This document shows positions 1 to 9,182 of a stretch of DNA of 36,682 bases, one piece after another. The position numbers and the translations under genes are program-made. This DNA is from a virus (taxonomy: Duplodnaviria; Heunggongvirae; Uroviricota; Caudoviricetes), in the IMG/VR virus record IMGVR_UViG_2545824713_000010. One strand, written 5' to 3'. The notes under the pieces were generated by a model. That model was given only the letters and a program-made list of their open reading frames with translations. It ran no database searches and was not told where the DNA came from. Within the stretch, counting starts at the first letter, position 1, and every line of letters begins with the position of its first letter.

Positions 1-1005
1 TTAATCCCCCGTGGACACTGCGTGGACACTCACGCCACCTTTCAGCGGATTAAGGGCCACCGCATCCTGCAGGTAATCCGGTGCAAAATGTGCATATGCC
101 ATTGTTTGCTGAATGGTTGCGTGGCCAAGAATCTTCTGAAGCGCAATAATGTTTCCTCCGTTCATCACAAAATGGCTGGCGAACGTATGCCGCAGCACAT
201 GTGCAGCCTGGCCTTTTGGTAAATCGGGCTTAACTCTTTTCAGCGCCAAGCAGAATTCCCGGTACTTCACCTCAAACAAGCCGCCTGTTTCTCTGGTTTT
301 GATCGCCTCACAAACTGCCTGCGAAATTGGCACTGTTCTCTTTCGGCCATTTTTGGTTTCAAGAAACGTTACACGGTTATGAACTATCTGTTCACCACGA
401 AGCTTACAAGCTTCACTCCAGCGCGCCCCTGTGCTTAAACACAAAAGCGCAACACGCCAGTAGTCGCCATCCAGTGTATCGAGCAATAGCGCTACTTCCT
501 TCTGGGACAGGAAAGCCATTTCTCGCGGGGATACATAAAGAATGGAGATCCCCCTTACCGGATGTTCTACATCCCAAAGGCCTATTCTTTTCAGAACAGT
601 AAACATGCCGGATAGTCGGTTCATGTACCTGTTAGCAGATGACGGTTTCAATCCAGCAGCTATCTTTTGAGAACGCCACGCGATAATTTTCAGCTTATCA
701 AGATCCACAGCCTGCATATCAGCGCCAAGCTCATTGATTATGTTGCACAGTTGTTTTCGGTCTTCTTCCGCCTTACGCCTGTGTTGACCGTGATACATCC
801 ACCACAACTCAAGCAAATCATTTAGCGTTCGGCGATCACGGTAGCCCTGTATATATTCCCGCTTTTCAGCGTTCGCCATGATGTAGCGTTCAGTGGCCAC
901 CGCTACCGATTTTTTGTCAAATACCTTACGCACGCGCTTTCCCTTGCGTCCGTTCGGCCTGATGTCCAGCAAATAACGACCATCTTCGAGCTTCTTAATT
1001 GACAT
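1..1005 (-). CDS. int: Tyrosine integrase, P2 Int-like
   Basis: ORF 1..1020(-); the likely true start is the internal MSIKKLEDGRY (P2 Int begins MAIKKLDDGRY from memory). C-terminal region carries conserved tyrosine-recombinase residues (ARWSEA, HVLRHTFASH, YAHF). Confidence 0.9.
   Translation of the reverse strand: MSIKKLEDGRYLLDIRPNGRKGKRVRKVFDKKSVAVATERYIMANAEKREYIQGYRDRRTLNDLLELWWMYHGQHRRKAEEDRKQLCNIINELGADMQAVDLDKLKIIAWRSQKIAAGLKPSSANRYMNRLSGMFTVLKRIGLWDVEHPVRGISILYVSPREMAFLSQKEVALLLDTLDGDYWRVALLCLSTGARWSEACKLRGEQIVHNRVTFLETKNGRKRTVPISQAVCEAIKTRETGGLFEVKYREFCLALKRVKPDLPKGQAAHVLRHTFASHFVMNGGNIIALQKILGHATIQQTMAYAHFAPDYLQDAVALNPLKGGVSVHAVSTGD
11..28. other. Putative att core copy (gtggacactgcgtggaca) overlapping the 3' end of int
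   Basis: 17 of 18 bases identical to 35502..35519 (gtggtcactgcgtggaca); lies in the last codons of int, where P2-type att cores sit. Confidence 0.45.
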
Positions 1006-1101
1006 TGCGAAGCCCTCCAATGAACCGCCCTACAATTTCTCCAGCCTCTTTCCAGCAATAATCAGACCAGACAAAGAGCAGGTCTAACCAGTTTTCTGGC
1101 C

Positions 1102-3714: not shown

Positions 3715-4010
3715 GCACCATCAATCACCAGAAGCTACGCGAACTGGCATTTGCCCTGCAACGAATGGCAACGCTTCAAAAATTACTGGCATTTCGCGCA
3801 ATGCTCTCGCCGTCTGCTGTGCTGGCGCTGCAGGATGAGCTGGAGCACGCCAGAACCACACCTCTAGCCATTCGCCTGACGCTCCGTCATGAAATCGAGG
3901 ATTTCTGCGCGACGTTGGAGGCGCCAGGTGAACCGGAAACGCCGGAAGCAATACAGCAAGAGCTGCTGCAACGCATTGACAAGGTTTTTGATTTTTTTCT
4001 GAACCACTAA
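3711..4010 (+). CDS. Hypothetical early protein
   Basis: 99-aa ORF, ATGA overlap with the upstream ORF. Confidence 0.5.
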   Translation: MSTINHQKLRELAFALQRMATLQKLLAFRAMLSPSAVLALQDELEHARTTPLAIRLTLRHEIEDFCATLEAPGEPETPEAIQQELLQRIDKVFDFFLNH

Positions 4011-4332
4011 GAAACCAGAACATGCACACACAAAAAAACCGCTTGCCATGCCGCAATCAGCCAGGTTACATTTCCGCTGCACCTCACAAAACGGGTGCCG
4101 GGTTTCGCAGCCTGCTGACAAACATAGCGCACAACCGCGCCAGCGGTTTTTTTGTGCGTACTGTATCGCCACGTTTTTTTCGCACACGAATTATGGCGGG
4201 GCGTACGGGGCCGACTTCGGTCGGGCCGGGTTCTATGTTTGCCGGTACTGCGAACCTCGTACGTCTCGCCACCCACAGTTTCGCAGCTCTGGATGGTGAG
4301 TTTTCAAAACTTACACACATAGAGGCCACACC

Positions 4333-4563
4333 ATGGCAAACCGCAAACAGCACCGCACTATCGCGGAGCGTCGTCACATCCAGACTGAAATCGATCGCAG
4401 ACTCACCCGCGCTGCACACATCGCCTTTATCATGCAATCCAACACATTGCACAGACTCAACAGCACTATTTCAGCCGACTACTGCGCCGCTGTATTCAGC
4501 TATCTGGCGGAAGACCTCCTGTCTCTTCAGGATCTCATCCAGCAGCAAAACAAACTCCATTAA
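4333..4563 (+). CDS. Hypothetical protein
   Basis: 76-aa ORF with RBS agagg. Confidence 0.4.
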   Translation: MANRKQHRTIAERRHIQTEIDRRLTRAAHIAFIMQSNTLHRLNSTISADYCAAVFSYLAEDLLSLQDLIQQQNKLH

Positions 4564-4635
4564 TTCCTGTTCCGGGCCTTTCCTGCACCTTGCGGCGGGA
4601 GGCCTTCGCACATCTGTAACAAGAGGATTGCCGCA

Positions 4636-5001
4636 ATGATTCTCGCCAACGACTTTCTTGAATACCTGCTCAACACAGAGCGTGATCTTGCCGTTCGCGT
4701 GCGTGAACGTTATGACATGTACCTGAAATCCCTGCCTGTACCGCAGCTCGCTGACGGAAAGATTGTTATTGATGGTCGCTACATGATTGACAGCCACGAG
4801 GGAAATTACAGGCTTTACCGCATTGAAGGTGGCACTCCGTCCGTTATTGGCATTTACCAGCGCCCATCCTCTGCAATCGTCGATGTGATTGCCGACAGCA
4901 TCCGCATCACACATCGCTATGCCGACACAGAAGACACCGTGCTGGAAATTCAGCGGCTGGCTGCCGTTTGCCGTGACACCCTGAACGGTATGACGCAGTA
5001 A
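4636..5001 (+). CDS. Hypothetical protein immediately upstream of A
   Basis: 121-aa ORF with RBS aagagg. Confidence 0.5.
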   Translation: MILANDFLEYLLNTERDLAVRVRERYDMYLKSLPVPQLADGKIVIDGRYMIDSHEGNYRLYRIEGGTPSVIGIYQRPSSAIVDVIADSIRITHRYADTEDTVLEIQRLAAVCRDTLNGMTQ

Positions 5002-5007
5002 ATCAGT

Positions 5008-7830
5008 ATGACGACAGAGTACATCAGGGACTGGCAACAACCGCGCCACGCAGTGGGGCGTGAAGGAACGGGGATCCCCGCACCTGAATCCGCGCTTTCC
5101 TCCTGGCTGGATGCCTACCGGGCAGAGAACGAGCGCCGACAGGAAAAGGCTGATGCGGCGTTCTCCGCCACGCCGCTGGGCAACCTGATTAATAAAAGCC
5201 TGGATGCACAGGAAAAACAGGACAAAACCATCACACTGGCAGGAGACGCCAGAAAGCAGGCACGCGGCGCGGTGGATGAAGCCATGGCCTCGCTGCGCCT
5301 GCTGCCGTCCTATCTGCGCGATCCGCTTATTCGCCACCTCTCCTTCCTGCGCAAAAAACAGGAATCTGACCGCCAGAAAGGTAAAAAGAACCAGCAGGCG
5401 GAACGCTATGCACGCGGAACCCTGCGCAAAATATTCGAACGTCTGGATCGCACTGACGGACGCTGGCTGACACCGGGTTATCGCTCCCTTGCCGGACGCG
5501 AACGCCTGGACGATTTGCTTTACCTGCCGCAGCTCAACAAACACCAGATACAGACGCTGGCCACCATGACGGCGGCGATGTTCAGCAGCACCTTCGAAAA
5601 ACTCTGCGATGGCTTTGGCGCGACCGATGGCGAACTGACCATGGATGTAACGCTGAAGACGTATCAGATGCTGGCCCGCATGGCGTTACACCTGCACATC
5701 ATGCCTCCACATTATGACGCACTGACAACAGATAAAGACCGGAGGAACGAACCGGACACGGAGCTGCTGCCGGGCGCAGTCCTTCGCCTGACCTGTGCGG
5801 AATGGTGGAAACGCAAACTGTGGCTGTTACGTTGCGAGTGGAGAGAAGAACAACTCCGCGCCGCCTGTCTGGTTTCCAGAAAAACATCGCCCTATCTGAG
5901 CCAGGACGCATTAAGCGAGTTTCGCGCACAGCGCGAGAAAACACGCGATTTCCTGAAAAGTTTCATGCTGGAAAATGAAGACGGGTTCACGATTGATCTC
6001 GAGACGGTGTATTACGCGGGAGTAAGTAACCCGGTTCACCGTAAGGCAGAAATGATGGCCACCATGAAGGGGCTGGAACTTCTGGCCGAAGCCCGTGGCG
6101 ACAGAGCGGTGTTTCTGACTGTCACCTGCCCGTCAAAATACCACGCAACAACGGAGAACGGTCATCCGAATCCCAAATGGAACGGGGCCACCATGCGCGA
6201 CTCCAGCGATTACCTGGTTAACACGTTTTTTGCGGCGGTCCGCAAAAAACTGAACCGCGACGGTCTTCGCTGGTATGGCATCCGCACGGTGGAGCCTCAC
6301 CATGACGGCACTGTGCACTGGCATATGATGGTCTTTGCACATCCGGACGAGATTGAAACCATCGTGTCCCACGTCTGCGATATTGCCATTCAGGAAGACC
6401 GCCACGAGCTGGGCGATGACATAACTCCGCGTTTTAAAGCGGAGTACGTCGACGGCTCAAAAGGCACGCCAACCAGCTACATCGCCACCTACATCGGAAA
6501 GAACCTGGACAGCCGCGCCGTGGATGGTATCGACCCGAAAACGGGCAAGCCACGCGTTGACCACGAAACCGGAAAATCAATGGCCGAGAGCGTGGAGCGC
6601 GCCATCGGCTGGGCGCGCCTTCACCGGGTCCGCCAGTTCCAGTTCTTTGGCATCCCCTCCCGTCAGGTGTGGCGTGAACTGCGCCGCCTTGCCAGCCAGA
6701 TGGCACGCAACCCGGAAGGCCCGCAACGGCTGAAGGATGACGCAATGGATGCAGTGCTCGCTGCCGCTGATGCCGGGTGTTTTGCCTCCTACATTGAAAA
6801 ACAGGGCGGCGTACTTGTTCCACGCAAAGACTACCTGATTCGCACCGCCTACGACCTCGCAGATGAGCTGAACGATTACGGCGAACAGAGCGTACAGATT
6901 TACGGGATCTGGTCACCACTCATCGGGGAGTCTTCCCGTGTGTGCACACATCCGGATAACTGGAAGCTGGTAAGACGTAAACCGGAAGCGGAAGACAGCG
7001 CCCGCGAAAATGGTTTTGACCTTCAGGGCGGTCCTGCCGCCCCTTGGACTCGTGGCAATAACTGTCCCCGTGTACAGGAAACAGGCAACAGCGGGACAGA
7101 ACAGTCGAAAGAACGGCCAGCACCGTGGCCGCAGCTTCCTGACGGCGTTGAAGTGAACGAATGGATGCGCTCACTGAAACGGCACGAACGCCGGGCGCTG
7201 ATGCGTTCGCTTCGTGACAAACAGGCAAAAAACAGCAGTGATGAAATGCAGAGCTGGACACAGAGCCGCAAACAGCAGCGGCCTTTGCCTGATAACCACG
7301 AATTACTCGCTAAAGAATGGCGGGAGTCTGCCGAATCTCTCGGCCTGCATATCGGTGAACAGCAGACGCAGCACCTGCTACGGGGCGGCAGCCTGTACGT
7401 TGACGGCAGCATCATTGCACCGCAGGGATATGAAATTGTACGCAAACCGGATACCCGCCCGGACAGCCGAATCACGCAGCTCTGGCAGCACCTGAGCCGT
7501 AATCACGGCGTAAGCAGCACGGAGATCCGCCATAACCCGGTCGCCAGCTATCTGGCACAGCTGGGGGCATCAGACCCCGAAGCCGCCGCACGCCTGGCAT
7601 CCGCACTTCAGCAGGATCAGAACACCATGAAAACACCCGTTACCGTGCTTTCTGACATGCTGCGCGCCATCCGCGACGCAGAGCACGCACAGAGAATCAG
7701 TGAAACCACTGAACGCGCCAGCCGCAAAGCAGACCTGCTGCAGGGTGGCCTGACCAGTGGAAACAAAAAACAGACAGAAACGGGACTCACGAATCCCGTA
7801 AATGAGCAAAAAACGCGCAGCGATATATGA
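5008..7830 (+). CDS. A: Replication initiation endonuclease, P2 gpA family (rolling-circle initiator), with a long C-terminal extension
   Basis: 940 aa; HUH-like motif TVHWHMMVFAHPDE and paired tyrosines in YIATYIGKN are typical of the gpA nickase; position matches P2 A. Confidence 0.85.
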   Translation: MTTEYIRDWQQPRHAVGREGTGIPAPESALSSWLDAYRAENERRQEKADAAFSATPLGNLINKSLDAQEKQDKTITLAGDARKQARGAVDEAMASLRLLPSYLRDPLIRHLSFLRKKQESDRQKGKKNQQAERYARGTLRKIFERLDRTDGRWLTPGYRSLAGRERLDDLLYLPQLNKHQIQTLATMTAAMFSSTFEKLCDGFGATDGELTMDVTLKTYQMLARMALHLHIMPPHYDALTTDKDRRNEPDTELLPGAVLRLTCAEWWKRKLWLLRCEWREEQLRAACLVSRKTSPYLSQDALSEFRAQREKTRDFLKSFMLENEDGFTIDLETVYYAGVSNPVHRKAEMMATMKGLELLAEARGDRAVFLTVTCPSKYHATTENGHPNPKWNGATMRDSSDYLVNTFFAAVRKKLNRDGLRWYGIRTVEPHHDGTVHWHMMVFAHPDEIETIVSHVCDIAIQEDRHELGDDITPRFKAEYVDGSKGTPTSYIATYIGKNLDSRAVDGIDPKTGKPRVDHETGKSMAESVERAIGWARLHRVRQFQFFGIPSRQVWRELRRLASQMARNPEGPQRLKDDAMDAVLAAADAGCFASYIEKQGGVLVPRKDYLIRTAYDLADELNDYGEQSVQIYGIWSPLIGESSRVCTHPDNWKLVRRKPEAEDSARENGFDLQGGPAAPWTRGNNCPRVQETGNSGTEQSKERPAPWPQLPDGVEVNEWMRSLKRHERRALMRSLRDKQAKNSSDEMQSWTQSRKQQRPLPDNHELLAKEWRESAESLGLHIGEQQTQHLLRGGSLYVDGSIIAPQGYEIVRKPDTRPDSRITQLWQHLSRNHGVSSTEIRHNPVASYLAQLGASDPEAAARLASALQQDQNTMKTPVTVLSDMLRAIRDAEHAQRISETTERASRKADLLQGGLTSGNKKQTETGLTNPVNEQKTRSDI

Positions 7831-7906: not shown

Positions 7907-8866
7907 ATGAAAATTTGTATCGACGACGGCTCCACCAACATCAAGCTGGCATGGACTGAGAACGGCGAACGCCGCAACGCCATCAGCCCGAACAGCTTCA
8001 AGTCGGAATGGTCTGCGCCGTTCGGTGGCACGCAGCCCGCGAACTACATGCTTGATGGCGTGCGCTATGGTTTTGATCCGGTCAGCGATCGCTTTGTCCA
8101 GACGACCGACACGCAATACCAGTACAGTGATGTGAATGTCATTGCCATTCATCACGCGCTGGTCAAATCAGGCATCACGCCACAGGAGGTGGATGTGGTT
8201 GTCACCCTGCCACTGAGCGAGTATTTCGACACAAACGCACAGCCGGACATAGCCAACATCAACCGCAAAAAAGCGAACGTTATGCGCCCGGTGGAGTACC
8301 AGAACGGCGAAGCATTCACTATCCGTAACGTGCGGGTTATGCCTGAATCCATTCCGGCTGGCTTTAAGGCACTGGCTGACATGAGTCCGTTTGAATCCCT
8401 GCTGATTGTGGATTTGGGCGGAACCACGCTGGATGTGGCAAAGGTTCAGGGGCAGCTGGCAGGTATCAGCCAGGTGTTTTGCGATCCACACGTAGGCGTT
8501 TCCCTGATGGCTGATGCCGTGCTGTCGGTGATGGCCACTAACGGTATGCGTACCAGTCACCACATCGCCAATACCATTATTGAGCACCGTCACGATGAAG
8601 CCTGGCTGCGCCAGCACATTCACAATGACGCGCATTACAACAGCCTGATGGCGGTTATTCGTGAAAAGGAGGAGACACTGAAACAACGAGTGATCCGCGC
8701 GCTGGCGGGTTTTTCCGGTTACGGGCGGGTGATGGTTGTCGGTGGAGGGGCGGAGATTGTGGCACCCGCTATCCGCGAAGCCTGCGGAGTTAATGCGACT
8801 TTCATCACGGACGGGGTGCCACATTTTGCTCTGGTTAATGGGCTGTACGCAATGAACAAGGAGTAA
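7907..8866 (+). CDS. parM: ParM/StbA-family actin-like ATPase
   Basis: 319 aa; N-terminus MKICIDDGSTNIKLAW closely matches plasmid R1 ParM/StbA as recalled (FIDDGSTNIKLQW), and YSDVNVIAIHHAL resembles the R1 WQYSDVNVVAVHHAL region; length equals ParM; RBS aagga. Confidence 0.8.
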   Translation: MKICIDDGSTNIKLAWTENGERRNAISPNSFKSEWSAPFGGTQPANYMLDGVRYGFDPVSDRFVQTTDTQYQYSDVNVIAIHHALVKSGITPQEVDVVVTLPLSEYFDTNAQPDIANINRKKANVMRPVEYQNGEAFTIRNVRVMPESIPAGFKALADMSPFESLLIVDLGGTTLDVAKVQGQLAGISQVFCDPHVGVSLMADAVLSVMATNGMRTSHHIANTIIEHRHDEAWLRQHIHNDAHYNSLMAVIREKEETLKQRVIRALAGFSGYGRVMVVGGGAEIVAPAIREACGVNATFITDGVPHFALVNGLYAMNKE

Positions 8867-8870
8867 ACCA

Positions 8871-9182
8871 ATGACGACACCAACCAGAAGAATAAGTTTC
8901 TATCTGAAGCCAGCTGCCGTCAAGAACGAAGGAGAAGCATGCGCCTGGCTGGACAGCCTTACACCAGAAGCCCGCAAAAGCGGCCAACGCGTGGCTTTTC
9001 TGGCCGGGCTGGCACTTCTGAAGACGAATCCGGCAGAGGCTTACCGACTGGCCGCATGGGCTGATGATGAGATGTTACCTGTGACACAAATCAGCTCAAA
9101 AAAGTTTGAAGCACAGTCTGCACCAGTGGCTAAGATAACCAGCCAGATGGCTGGGAATATCCGGGCGTTATTTCCTGAGTAA
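8871..9182 (+). CDS. parR: ParR-like ribbon-helix-helix adaptor
   Basis: 103 aa directly after parM. RISFYLKP and LDSLTPEARKSGQRVAFLAGLAL parallel R1 ParR (RTIAFKLNP, LDSIPQGERSRLNRAALTAGLAL) as recalled from memory. Confidence 0.55.
   Translation: MTTPTRRISFYLKPAAVKNEGEACAWLDSLTPEARKSGQRVAFLAGLALLKTNPAEAYRLAAWADDEMLPVTQISSKKFEAQSAPVAKITSQMAGNIRALFPE

Follow-up and report, generated by a model that had tools for sequence, protein, structure and literature searches.

The locus described here raises a simple question: what occupies a gap of about 320 bp (positions 4011-4332) inside the early operon of a phage? The gap lies in a viral sequence of 36,682 nucleotides (IMG/VR record IMGVR_UViG_2545824713_000010), the whole of which we call the window. 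It was singled out in an earlier reading of the letters alone (the original prediction) as a structured non-coding region that might be an internal terminator or anti-terminator, a small RNA, or an iterated protein-binding site. Our analysis indicates that the gap, which lies in the early operon of a P88-like, P2-type prophage, very probably holds an IsrK-C4 antisense-RNA immunity cassette. The cassette is homologous to seqA-CI-seqC of P4, to a1b1-c4-a2b2 (immI) of P1, and to isrK-STnc1160 of Gifsy-1. Cassettes of this type are well known; what is new is the host phage and one extra inverted repeat. Two RNAs score above their Rfam thresholds, the C4 structure is supported by covariation, and the pairing sites co-vary.

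We scanned the window with the Rfam models, using as threshold the gathering score of each family (50 bits for isrK, RF01394, and 45 bits for C4, RF01695). There were two matches above these scores in the gap, both on the plus strand (Table 1), and the suggestion of a small RNA was therefore borne out twice over. The upstream match is an IsrK-like RNA that is, by its match to the model, the equivalent of P4 seqA and of the a1b1 region of P1. Its predicted fold agrees with the Rfam model and consists of three hairpins, the last of which is a Rho-independent terminator. Hairpin 1 (4079-4098) is followed by hairpin 2 (4099-4114), which has the a1 site in its loop, by a single-stranded stretch containing b1, and by the terminator hairpin with its run of seven U. 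The internal terminator that had been proposed for the gap is thus the 3' end of IsrK, and only 1 of its 23 columns (4%) is variable among relatives. A promoter-like site upstream would start transcription near 4079, where the IsrK model begins. Its -10 hexamer and the sequence CTTGC are kept even in a relative that is 72% identical (L109), and the site upstream of P4 seqA (TTGCCT-18-TATAGT) has the same geometry.

The downstream match is a C4/CI-type antisense RNA, which we regard, from its full-length match, as a homologue of P1 c4 and P4 CI. Alignment to the annotated C4 RNA of P1 predicts a mature RNA of about 79 nucleotides, at about 4195-4273. It has a closing stem (4194-4210/4255-4271), a first hairpin with a UUCG loop (4211-4224), and a second hairpin (4225-4246). 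The minimum free energy (MFE) structure is the structure of the model (z = -4.1). Folding and covariation had been proposed as a check on the gap, and they gave a clear answer for C4: in 78 distinct family sequences, 97% of the pair cells were canonical, and compensatory (double-sided) changes were found at 18 of the 27 pairs. The leader has a conserved AAUUAU just 5' of the predicted RNase P cleavage site (AAUUAU/GG), the 3' end is GCCACC, and the leader sequence AAUUAUGG is common to the window and P1. Within the spacer, the sequence at 4157-4172 (CGUACUGUAUCGCCAC) nearly repeats positions 4258-4272, the 3' strand of the closing stem of C4. In unprocessed transcripts this copy could pair with the C4 5' strand and give an alternative precursor fold, and this pairing appears in the MFE structure of the modelled read-through transcript 4079-4345.

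Two segments exposed in C4, a' and b', are complementary to sites upstream (a1 and b1) and downstream (a2 and b2), and the distal site lies at the ribosome-binding site of the first open reading frame (ORF). In the window the complementarity extends over 7 nucleotides for a'/a1, 7 for a'/a2, 9 for b'/b1, and 7 for b'/b2, the last adjoining the Shine-Dalgarno sequence. There were no other paired a and b target sites for C4 in the window outside this locus.

To compare these sites across the family, we used a pattern scan of viral contigs that gave 120 loci, of which 105 were unique and entered the pairing test. The test looked for a Watson-Crick complement of at least 7 nucleotides in the flanks of the same locus or, as a permuted control, in the flanks of another locus. 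A complement of a' was found upstream in 98% of the loci and downstream in 96%, and a complement of b' upstream in 70% and downstream in 87%. The corresponding value for permuted pairs of C4 and flanks was 12-15%. The median positions of the sites in the family coincide with those in the window. Among 23 close relatives (79-94% identical), between 42% and 80% of the columns in the six specificity sites were variable, the stem of hairpin 2 was invariant (0%), and the other stems were nearly fixed. Nine of the twelve columns of the loop at 4230-4241 varied, in concert with b1 and b2, and a1, a', and a2 likewise changed together. These relatives have 14 distinct combinations of b' and a', with some pairings kept through G-U pairs. 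We read this concerted variation in the six sites as the mark of selection on pairing between RNAs and of an immunity specificity that is diversifying. We found no specificity common to helper-type and P4-type modules, which would allow cross-talk between their RNAs, in the 26 and 37 loci sampled.

Table 1. Features assigned to the gap and to the genes that follow it, in window coordinates.
Feature	Position	Strand	Description
Left arm of long inverted repeat	4026-4046	+	Perfect core 4029-4043, CACAAAAAAACCGCT; upstream of and overlapping the -35 hexamer
Sigma-70 promoter-like site	4043-4072	+	-35 TTGCCA (4043-4048), 18-nucleotide spacer, -10 TACATT (4067-4072)
IsrK-like small RNA	4079-4153	+	RF01394, 65.4 bits (gathering score 50); 75 nucleotides
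a1 target	4100-4110	+	GGGUUUCGCAG; core UUCGCAG (4104-4110), in loop of IsrK hairpin 2; complement of a'
b1 target	4119-4127	+	CAAACAUAG; perfect 9-nucleotide complement of C4 loop b'
IsrK intrinsic terminator	4133-4153	+	Stem AACCGC/GCGGUU, loop GCCA, U7 at 4147-4153
Spacer and C4 5' leader	4154-4194	+	Holds the second T7 run, 4174-4180
C4/CI-type antisense RNA	4189-4276	+	RF01695, 83.5 bits (gathering score 45); full-length match, 1-87
b' specificity loop	4232-4241	+	UCUAUGUUUG; loop of C4 hairpin 2
a' specificity segment	4248-4254	+	CUGCGAA; single-stranded C4 junction
a2 target	4277-4286	+	AGUUUCGCAG; directly 3' of C4; part complementary to a' 4280-4286
b2 target	4314-4325	+	CACACAUAGA (4314-4323); overlaps Shine-Dalgarno AGAGG (4321-4325) of the ORF with ATG at 4333
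Gene for P4-epsilon-like "derepression protein"	4333-4563	+	76 amino acids
orf121	4636-5001	+	PHROG 3237, function unknown
gpA replication endonuclease	5008-7830	+	940 amino acids; Phage_GPA domain, 1.8e-129; 31% identical to P2 A

Most of the features that had first drawn attention to the gap are there at the positions given for them. Both runs of seven T are present, one in the IsrK terminator and the other in the C4 leader. The UUCG hairpin is real and is helix 1 of the C4 RNA, but it had been drawn too long: the stem supported by covariation has just 5 bp (4211-4215/4220-4224, loop 4216-4219), and the G and C bases that flank it are part of neighbouring C4 helices. The repeats that the original prediction did not recognize as such are the complementarity sites a1/b1, a'/b', and a2/b2, of the kind known from P1 c4 and P4 CI. 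A LexA box considered around 4158-4176 was dropped, since by eye only a CTGT half-site was present.

We weighed two other explanations of the gap, one of which makes it protein-coding. An 83-amino-acid ORF with the cysteine pairs CAYC and CRYC is present at 4048-4299, and the pairs sit in a direct repeat (TTTGTGCGTACTG/TTTGCCGGTACTG), both as had been reported. It had also been reported as the sole ORF, which it is not: a 205-amino-acid frame (4022-4639), which would encode an "Ash family" regulator, a 56-amino-acid frame (4152-4322), and three minus-strand ORFs cross the gap too. The doubt already expressed about the 83-amino-acid ORF was justified. In 18 of 22 relatives codon 14 is a stop, and the variable columns of the frame are spread evenly over the three codon positions (25/27/29). 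The codon-substitution check thus gave no sign of the synonymous bias that had been named in advance as the mark of coding sequence. The longer frame has more in its favor, as it stays open in most relatives, matches PHROG families labelled transcriptional regulator or repressor, gives a weak match to PF10554 (Phage_ASH), and lies where some genomes have a PGAP call of a partial "ash family protein". The PF10554 score, however, is 15.9 bits against a cut-off of 26, which does not place the frame in the Ash family, and its start codon is gone in several relatives. Within the gap the frame also lacks third-position bias (38/41/36), and where it overlaps the epsilon-like gene the variation follows the epsilon frame. 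Variation across the gap is concentrated where RNAs pair, and it is compensatory at the level of RNA. In P4, too, the PF10554 match lies over the CI RNA, and the immunity function of CI is known to be RNA-borne from the P4 literature as cited in PMC3632133. We therefore rejected the coding hypothesis after scanning both ORFs against Pfam, NCBIfam, and PHROGs and testing codon positions and ORF integrity; the gap is RNA, not protein, and a coding role seems highly improbable.

The other explanation is that the gap contains just an intrinsic terminator or attenuator with chance hairpins, or else iterated DNA sites for a protein (GTACTG, TTTCGCA). A canonical terminator and short direct repeats do exist. 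There are, however, two independent Rfam matches well above threshold, and the repeats form antisense-target pairs that co-vary. The two GTACTG copies that had been pointed out are there (4158-4163 and 4245-4250), but the motif is at chance frequency in the window (11 found, 9.2 expected), and the TTTCGCA copy at 4178-4184, the third, falls short of a full target. The proposal of an iterated protein-binding site thus did not hold up, as the remaining repeats are explained as RNA-RNA target sites, and we give this explanation very little chance of being right.

Some existing annotations of such regions touch on the same point. PF10554 matches P4 (L004) at 8168-8584 on the minus strand with 59.7 bits, at an obsolete 137-amino-acid "cI" ORF over the CI RNA; it matches neither P4 epsilon (which scores 170 bits with PF25738) nor kil alone. 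It weakly matches the translated IsrK-C4 region here and a PGAP "ash family" pseudogene of a relative (L126, 1491-1754), and several PHROG "transcriptional regulator/repressor" families likewise match the translated IsrK-C4 region (window 4022-4639). What PF10554, those PHROG families, and the pseudogenes that PGAP calls "ash family" represent is probably a conserved RNA gene in translation. A survey of P4-like satellites took PF10554 as a marker for epsilon (PMC8628076). In the record of phage P88 (L001, KP063541), a minus-strand coding sequence for a "hypothetical protein" (5033-5221) runs across the IsrK and C4 genes, for which the Rfam matches are at 5028-5102 and 5138-5225; this coding sequence is probably a spurious call.

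The first ORF downstream of the antisense cassette behaves as coding sequence. It is intact in all relatives (in L084 it is shortened by an internal deletion), and its variable columns have a clear third-position bias (30/30/56). In relatives, PGAP labels it "derepression protein". The product is 30% identical to P4 epsilon over 66 amino acids (BLASTP, E = 4e-9), so that homology to P4 epsilon is likely from this comparison, although its PF25738 score does not place it in that family. By binding the C repressor of P2, P4 epsilon derepresses that phage. According to work attributed to Liu et al. in 1997/1998, P2 C is reportedly the known target of P4 epsilon. We sampled 25 P88-like loci whose downstream DNA was long enough, and every one has the epsilon-like gene and then gpA after the module, most often separated by orf121. 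We infer that the epsilon-like gene is the first gene under C4 control, and orf121 and gpA (4636-7830) are likely subject to polarity when this first ORF is silenced.

A mechanism can be proposed from what is known of P4, P1, and Gifsy-1 (PMC4825925; PMC3632133), the second of these sources speaking of P4's "IsrK-C4 immunity system". In a lysogen, the internal promoter would make the 75-nucleotide IsrK, which would end at its own terminator. Read-through of this terminator and transcripts from the early promoter (Pe) would provide a C4 precursor, to be cut to about 79 nucleotides, with RNase P cutting the 5' end and the RNA ending in GCCACC. C4 would then pair with a2 and b2 and block the ribosome-binding site of the epsilon-like anti-repressor gene, and the block in translation would limit expression of orf121 and gpA through polarity. 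The outcome would be a prophage that is kept quiet, with an immunity specified by RNA. IsrK, which has a1 and b1, would compete for C4, relieve the block, and switch the operon back on. In the MFE structure of the read-through transcript 4079-4345, a1 and b1 are paired with a' and b' in cis. Phage P88 has been recovered from its lysogen after treatment with mitomycin C (PMC5285337).

Several points weigh against an IsrK-C4 cassette that works in this way. The fold of the short IsrK RNA is not more stable than those of shuffled sequences (z = -0.5), and the promoter-like site matches the consensus at 9 of 12 positions. The score of the 76-amino-acid protein with PF25738 is 22.7 bits, below the cut-off of 27, and its assignment as epsilon-like comes from this score and one pairwise BLASTP. 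There is no leader ORF like icd or kil, which P1 and P4 have, and coupling to Rho-dependent termination upstream of gpA is therefore an extrapolation. Finally, the published model for Gifsy-1 stresses activation by IsrK and not repression by the C4-like RNA (PMC4825925), and regulation in vivo could have a net sign other than the repression proposed here.

The closest known counterpart is the immunity region of P4 (PLE - seqA - CI RNA/seqB - seqC - kil - epsilon - orf151 - cnr - alpha). With the isrK model seqA scores 60.8 bits, and with the C4 model CI scores 74.9 bits. In P4, as here, there is complementarity at two sites, upstream and downstream, with the distal site on the Shine-Dalgarno sequence of the first ORF, and an epsilon-type derepression gene is followed by small ORFs and a replication protein. 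There are also differences. P4 is a satellite, whereas the element here is a full P2-type phage; regulation here would begin with the epsilon-like gene itself, without a kil/eta leader ORF in front; and the replication protein is gpA, a rolling-circle nickase, instead of the alpha primase-helicase. The cassette here is embedded in a longer early operon driven by Pe, and it has an extra inverted repeat of 15-21 nucleotides that is absent from P4.

The immI operon of P1 and P7 (a1 b1 - c4 - a2 b2 - icd - ant1/2) has the same family of C4 RNA: P1 c4 scores 68.8 bits, and the c4-a1b1 model gives 51.0 on P1. The annotated order of sites (a1, b1, c4, a2, b2, first ORF) is shared, with a2 abutting the 3' end of C4 and b2 adjoining the Shine-Dalgarno sequence. 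In P1 the regulated product is an anti-repressor, as the epsilon-like protein would be here, and variants differ in a and b, as the heteroimmune P1 and P7 do. Unlike the window, P1 has an upstream part that stays below the gathering score for isrK (35.1 bits), an icd leader ORF, and a C1-controlled promoter, and its anti-repressor Ant is unrelated to epsilon. At the Gifsy-1 locus of Salmonella (isrK - orf45/STnc1160 - anrP - isrJ), IsrK is made from its own promoter, ends at a leaky terminator, and acts in trans on the long transcript (PMC4825925). The window resembles it in having an IsrK with its own terminator and a putative anti-repressor gene downstream, and a promoter is predicted for its IsrK. 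The MFE structure of 4079-4345 pairs IsrK sequences with the C4 region in cis, as in the inactive "structure A" of Gifsy-1. In contrast to the element here, Gifsy-1 is a lambdoid phage; it has as cargo AnrP, which acts through AntQ, and its translation proceeds via orf45, which overlaps the C4-like RNA and has no equivalent conserved ORF in the window. Binding of Hfq and trans-activation of the read-through mRNA by IsrK are known only for Gifsy-1 (PMC4825925). We found no description of IsrK or C4 in P2-like or P88-like phages in the library of literature that we searched. In species-representative genomes, a strict 20-base pattern for the IsrK promoter and hairpin of enterobacterial phages gave one match (L127, NZ_JBQPOM010000071.1, 1096-1118), in a contig labelled Vagococcus sp., a Firmicute, which may reflect contamination or mislabelling.

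The one feature that the family model does not explain is the long inverted repeat. The 12-nucleotide repeat that had been noted (caaaaaaaccgc, 4031-4042, and gcggtttttttg, 4143-4154) is present and, in full, is perfect over 15 nucleotides (4029-4043/4142-4156) and 90% complementary over 21 (4026-4046/4139-4159). Its right arm overlaps the 3' half and U tract of the IsrK terminator. Because its left arm lies upstream of the internal start, it is carried only by transcripts from the early promoter. The run of seven A in the left arm, at about -47 to -41, could act as an UP-element-like A tract. The repeat is found in 24 of 96 unique C4 loci with an upstream T run, all of them P88-like, and is absent from P4-like and other C4 loci. 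Every sequence of a second sample, 74 unique segments obtained with another pattern from viral contigs, has it as well.

As an addition to the IsrK-C4 cassette, and not a replacement for it, the repeat might act as a switch. In Pe transcripts, the left arm would pair with 4139-4159 and either replace the terminator hairpin, giving antitermination, or form a site of about 21 bp for RNase III. Transcripts from Pe would then reach the epsilon-like gene and gpA, and those from the internal promoter would stop as IsrK. A perfect repeat of 15 nucleotides is rare by chance, being reached in 1 of 1000 dinucleotide shuffles of 3950-4400 (a 12-nucleotide repeat was reached in 7), and the repeat is restricted to P88-like modules, in all of which it occurs, including that of the 72%-identical L109. 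A homology break lies just left of the left arm, the fold of 4024-4160 has z = -5.3, and a C to A variant in the terminator loop, in 9 loci, lengthens the repeat to 18 nucleotides. The two pairings exclude each other at equilibrium: in transcripts that begin at 4079 the terminator stem has a probability of 0.92-0.96, and in those that begin upstream it has at most 0.005 (window, L109, and L090). On the other hand, the arms show no covariation, being too invariant across the 74 unique segments to judge, and the few changes are uncompensated (A5 for A7 in 11 loci, a single G to A, and shortened T runs). A second role is also likely for each arm, the left as A tract and -35 hexamer and the right as terminator. 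The left arm, moreover, competes for the 3' arm of the terminator stem instead of sequestering its 5' arm, so that the local hairpin is kinetically favored during transcription and equilibrium folding is not decisive. On balance, such a switch seems somewhat unlikely, and it is the only form in which the anti-terminator of the original prediction might still apply.

The genomic setting agrees with the placement of the gap inside an early operon. At the left end of the window there is an integrase gene (1-1020, minus strand), followed by a repressor gene on the same strand (1102-1440) whose 112-amino-acid helix-turn-helix product is a homologue of P2 C (39% identity, E = 3e-19). Then come cox (1538-1825), co-directional small ORFs, the gap, and gpA. 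The phage records nearest to the window are Xuanwuvirus (P88-like, Peduoviridae), their annotated gene order is the same, and by these comparisons the window is a P88-like (Xuanwuvirus) P2-type prophage. The early region of P2 itself had no match to the isrK or C4 models; P88 and L109 match both. No tRNA or tmRNA was found in a search of the window. The gap is 100% identical to Escherichia coli ATCC 43896 and, with a threshold of 80% identity, was found in about a fifth of complete E. coli genomes (1112 of 5426). In the sampled rows of that search, it was mostly without annotation or was called a hypothetical or "ash family" gene. Homology breaks recur among relatives at about 4021-4030 and about 4655. 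The genes upstream of the module vary between relatives (P88, for example, has an SPFH-domain gene), and in some the gene after the epsilon-like gene also differs. From these alignments, the left arm, IsrK, C4, and the epsilon-like gene form a mosaic module bracketed by the breaks.

Two further observations concern the DNA downstream of the epsilon-like ORF. Between it and orf121 there is a strong, GC-rich hairpin without a U tract (4574-4605, plus strand, GGGCCUUUCCUGCA...GCGGCGGGAGGCC), which is kept in most relatives without clear covariation and has no Rfam match. Directly after gpA, a ParM actin-like segregation protein (7907-8866, plus strand; StbA_N 3.5e-82, ParM C-terminal domain 2.5e-67) pairs with a Plasmid_stab_B protein (8871-9182, plus strand), giving a plasmid-type partition system in an integrase-bearing, integrating P2-like phage.

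A broader proposal, which we consider unlikely as a whole, is that P88-like phages have a second, RNA-encoded layer of immunity that was borrowed from, or is ancestral to, the immunity-epsilon module of P4. The hypervariable a and b sequences would serve as barcodes, with at least 14 types among near-identical prophages, and would set the mutual silencing of the anti-repressor and replication genes of co-resident phages or satellites. The inverted repeat would make the IsrK terminator conditional on the origin of the transcript, with reading through from Pe and stopping from the internal promoter.

The gap can now be annotated as two known regulatory RNAs, and the known mechanism of the IsrK-C4 family is unchanged by these findings. 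An inducible branch of the P2-like phages would use antisense RNA to control an epsilon-like anti-repressor and a replication gene. Homologous modules of RNA immunity plus epsilon occur in a helper-type phage and in the P4 satellite, which bears on the evolution of the regulatory circuits of helpers and satellites.

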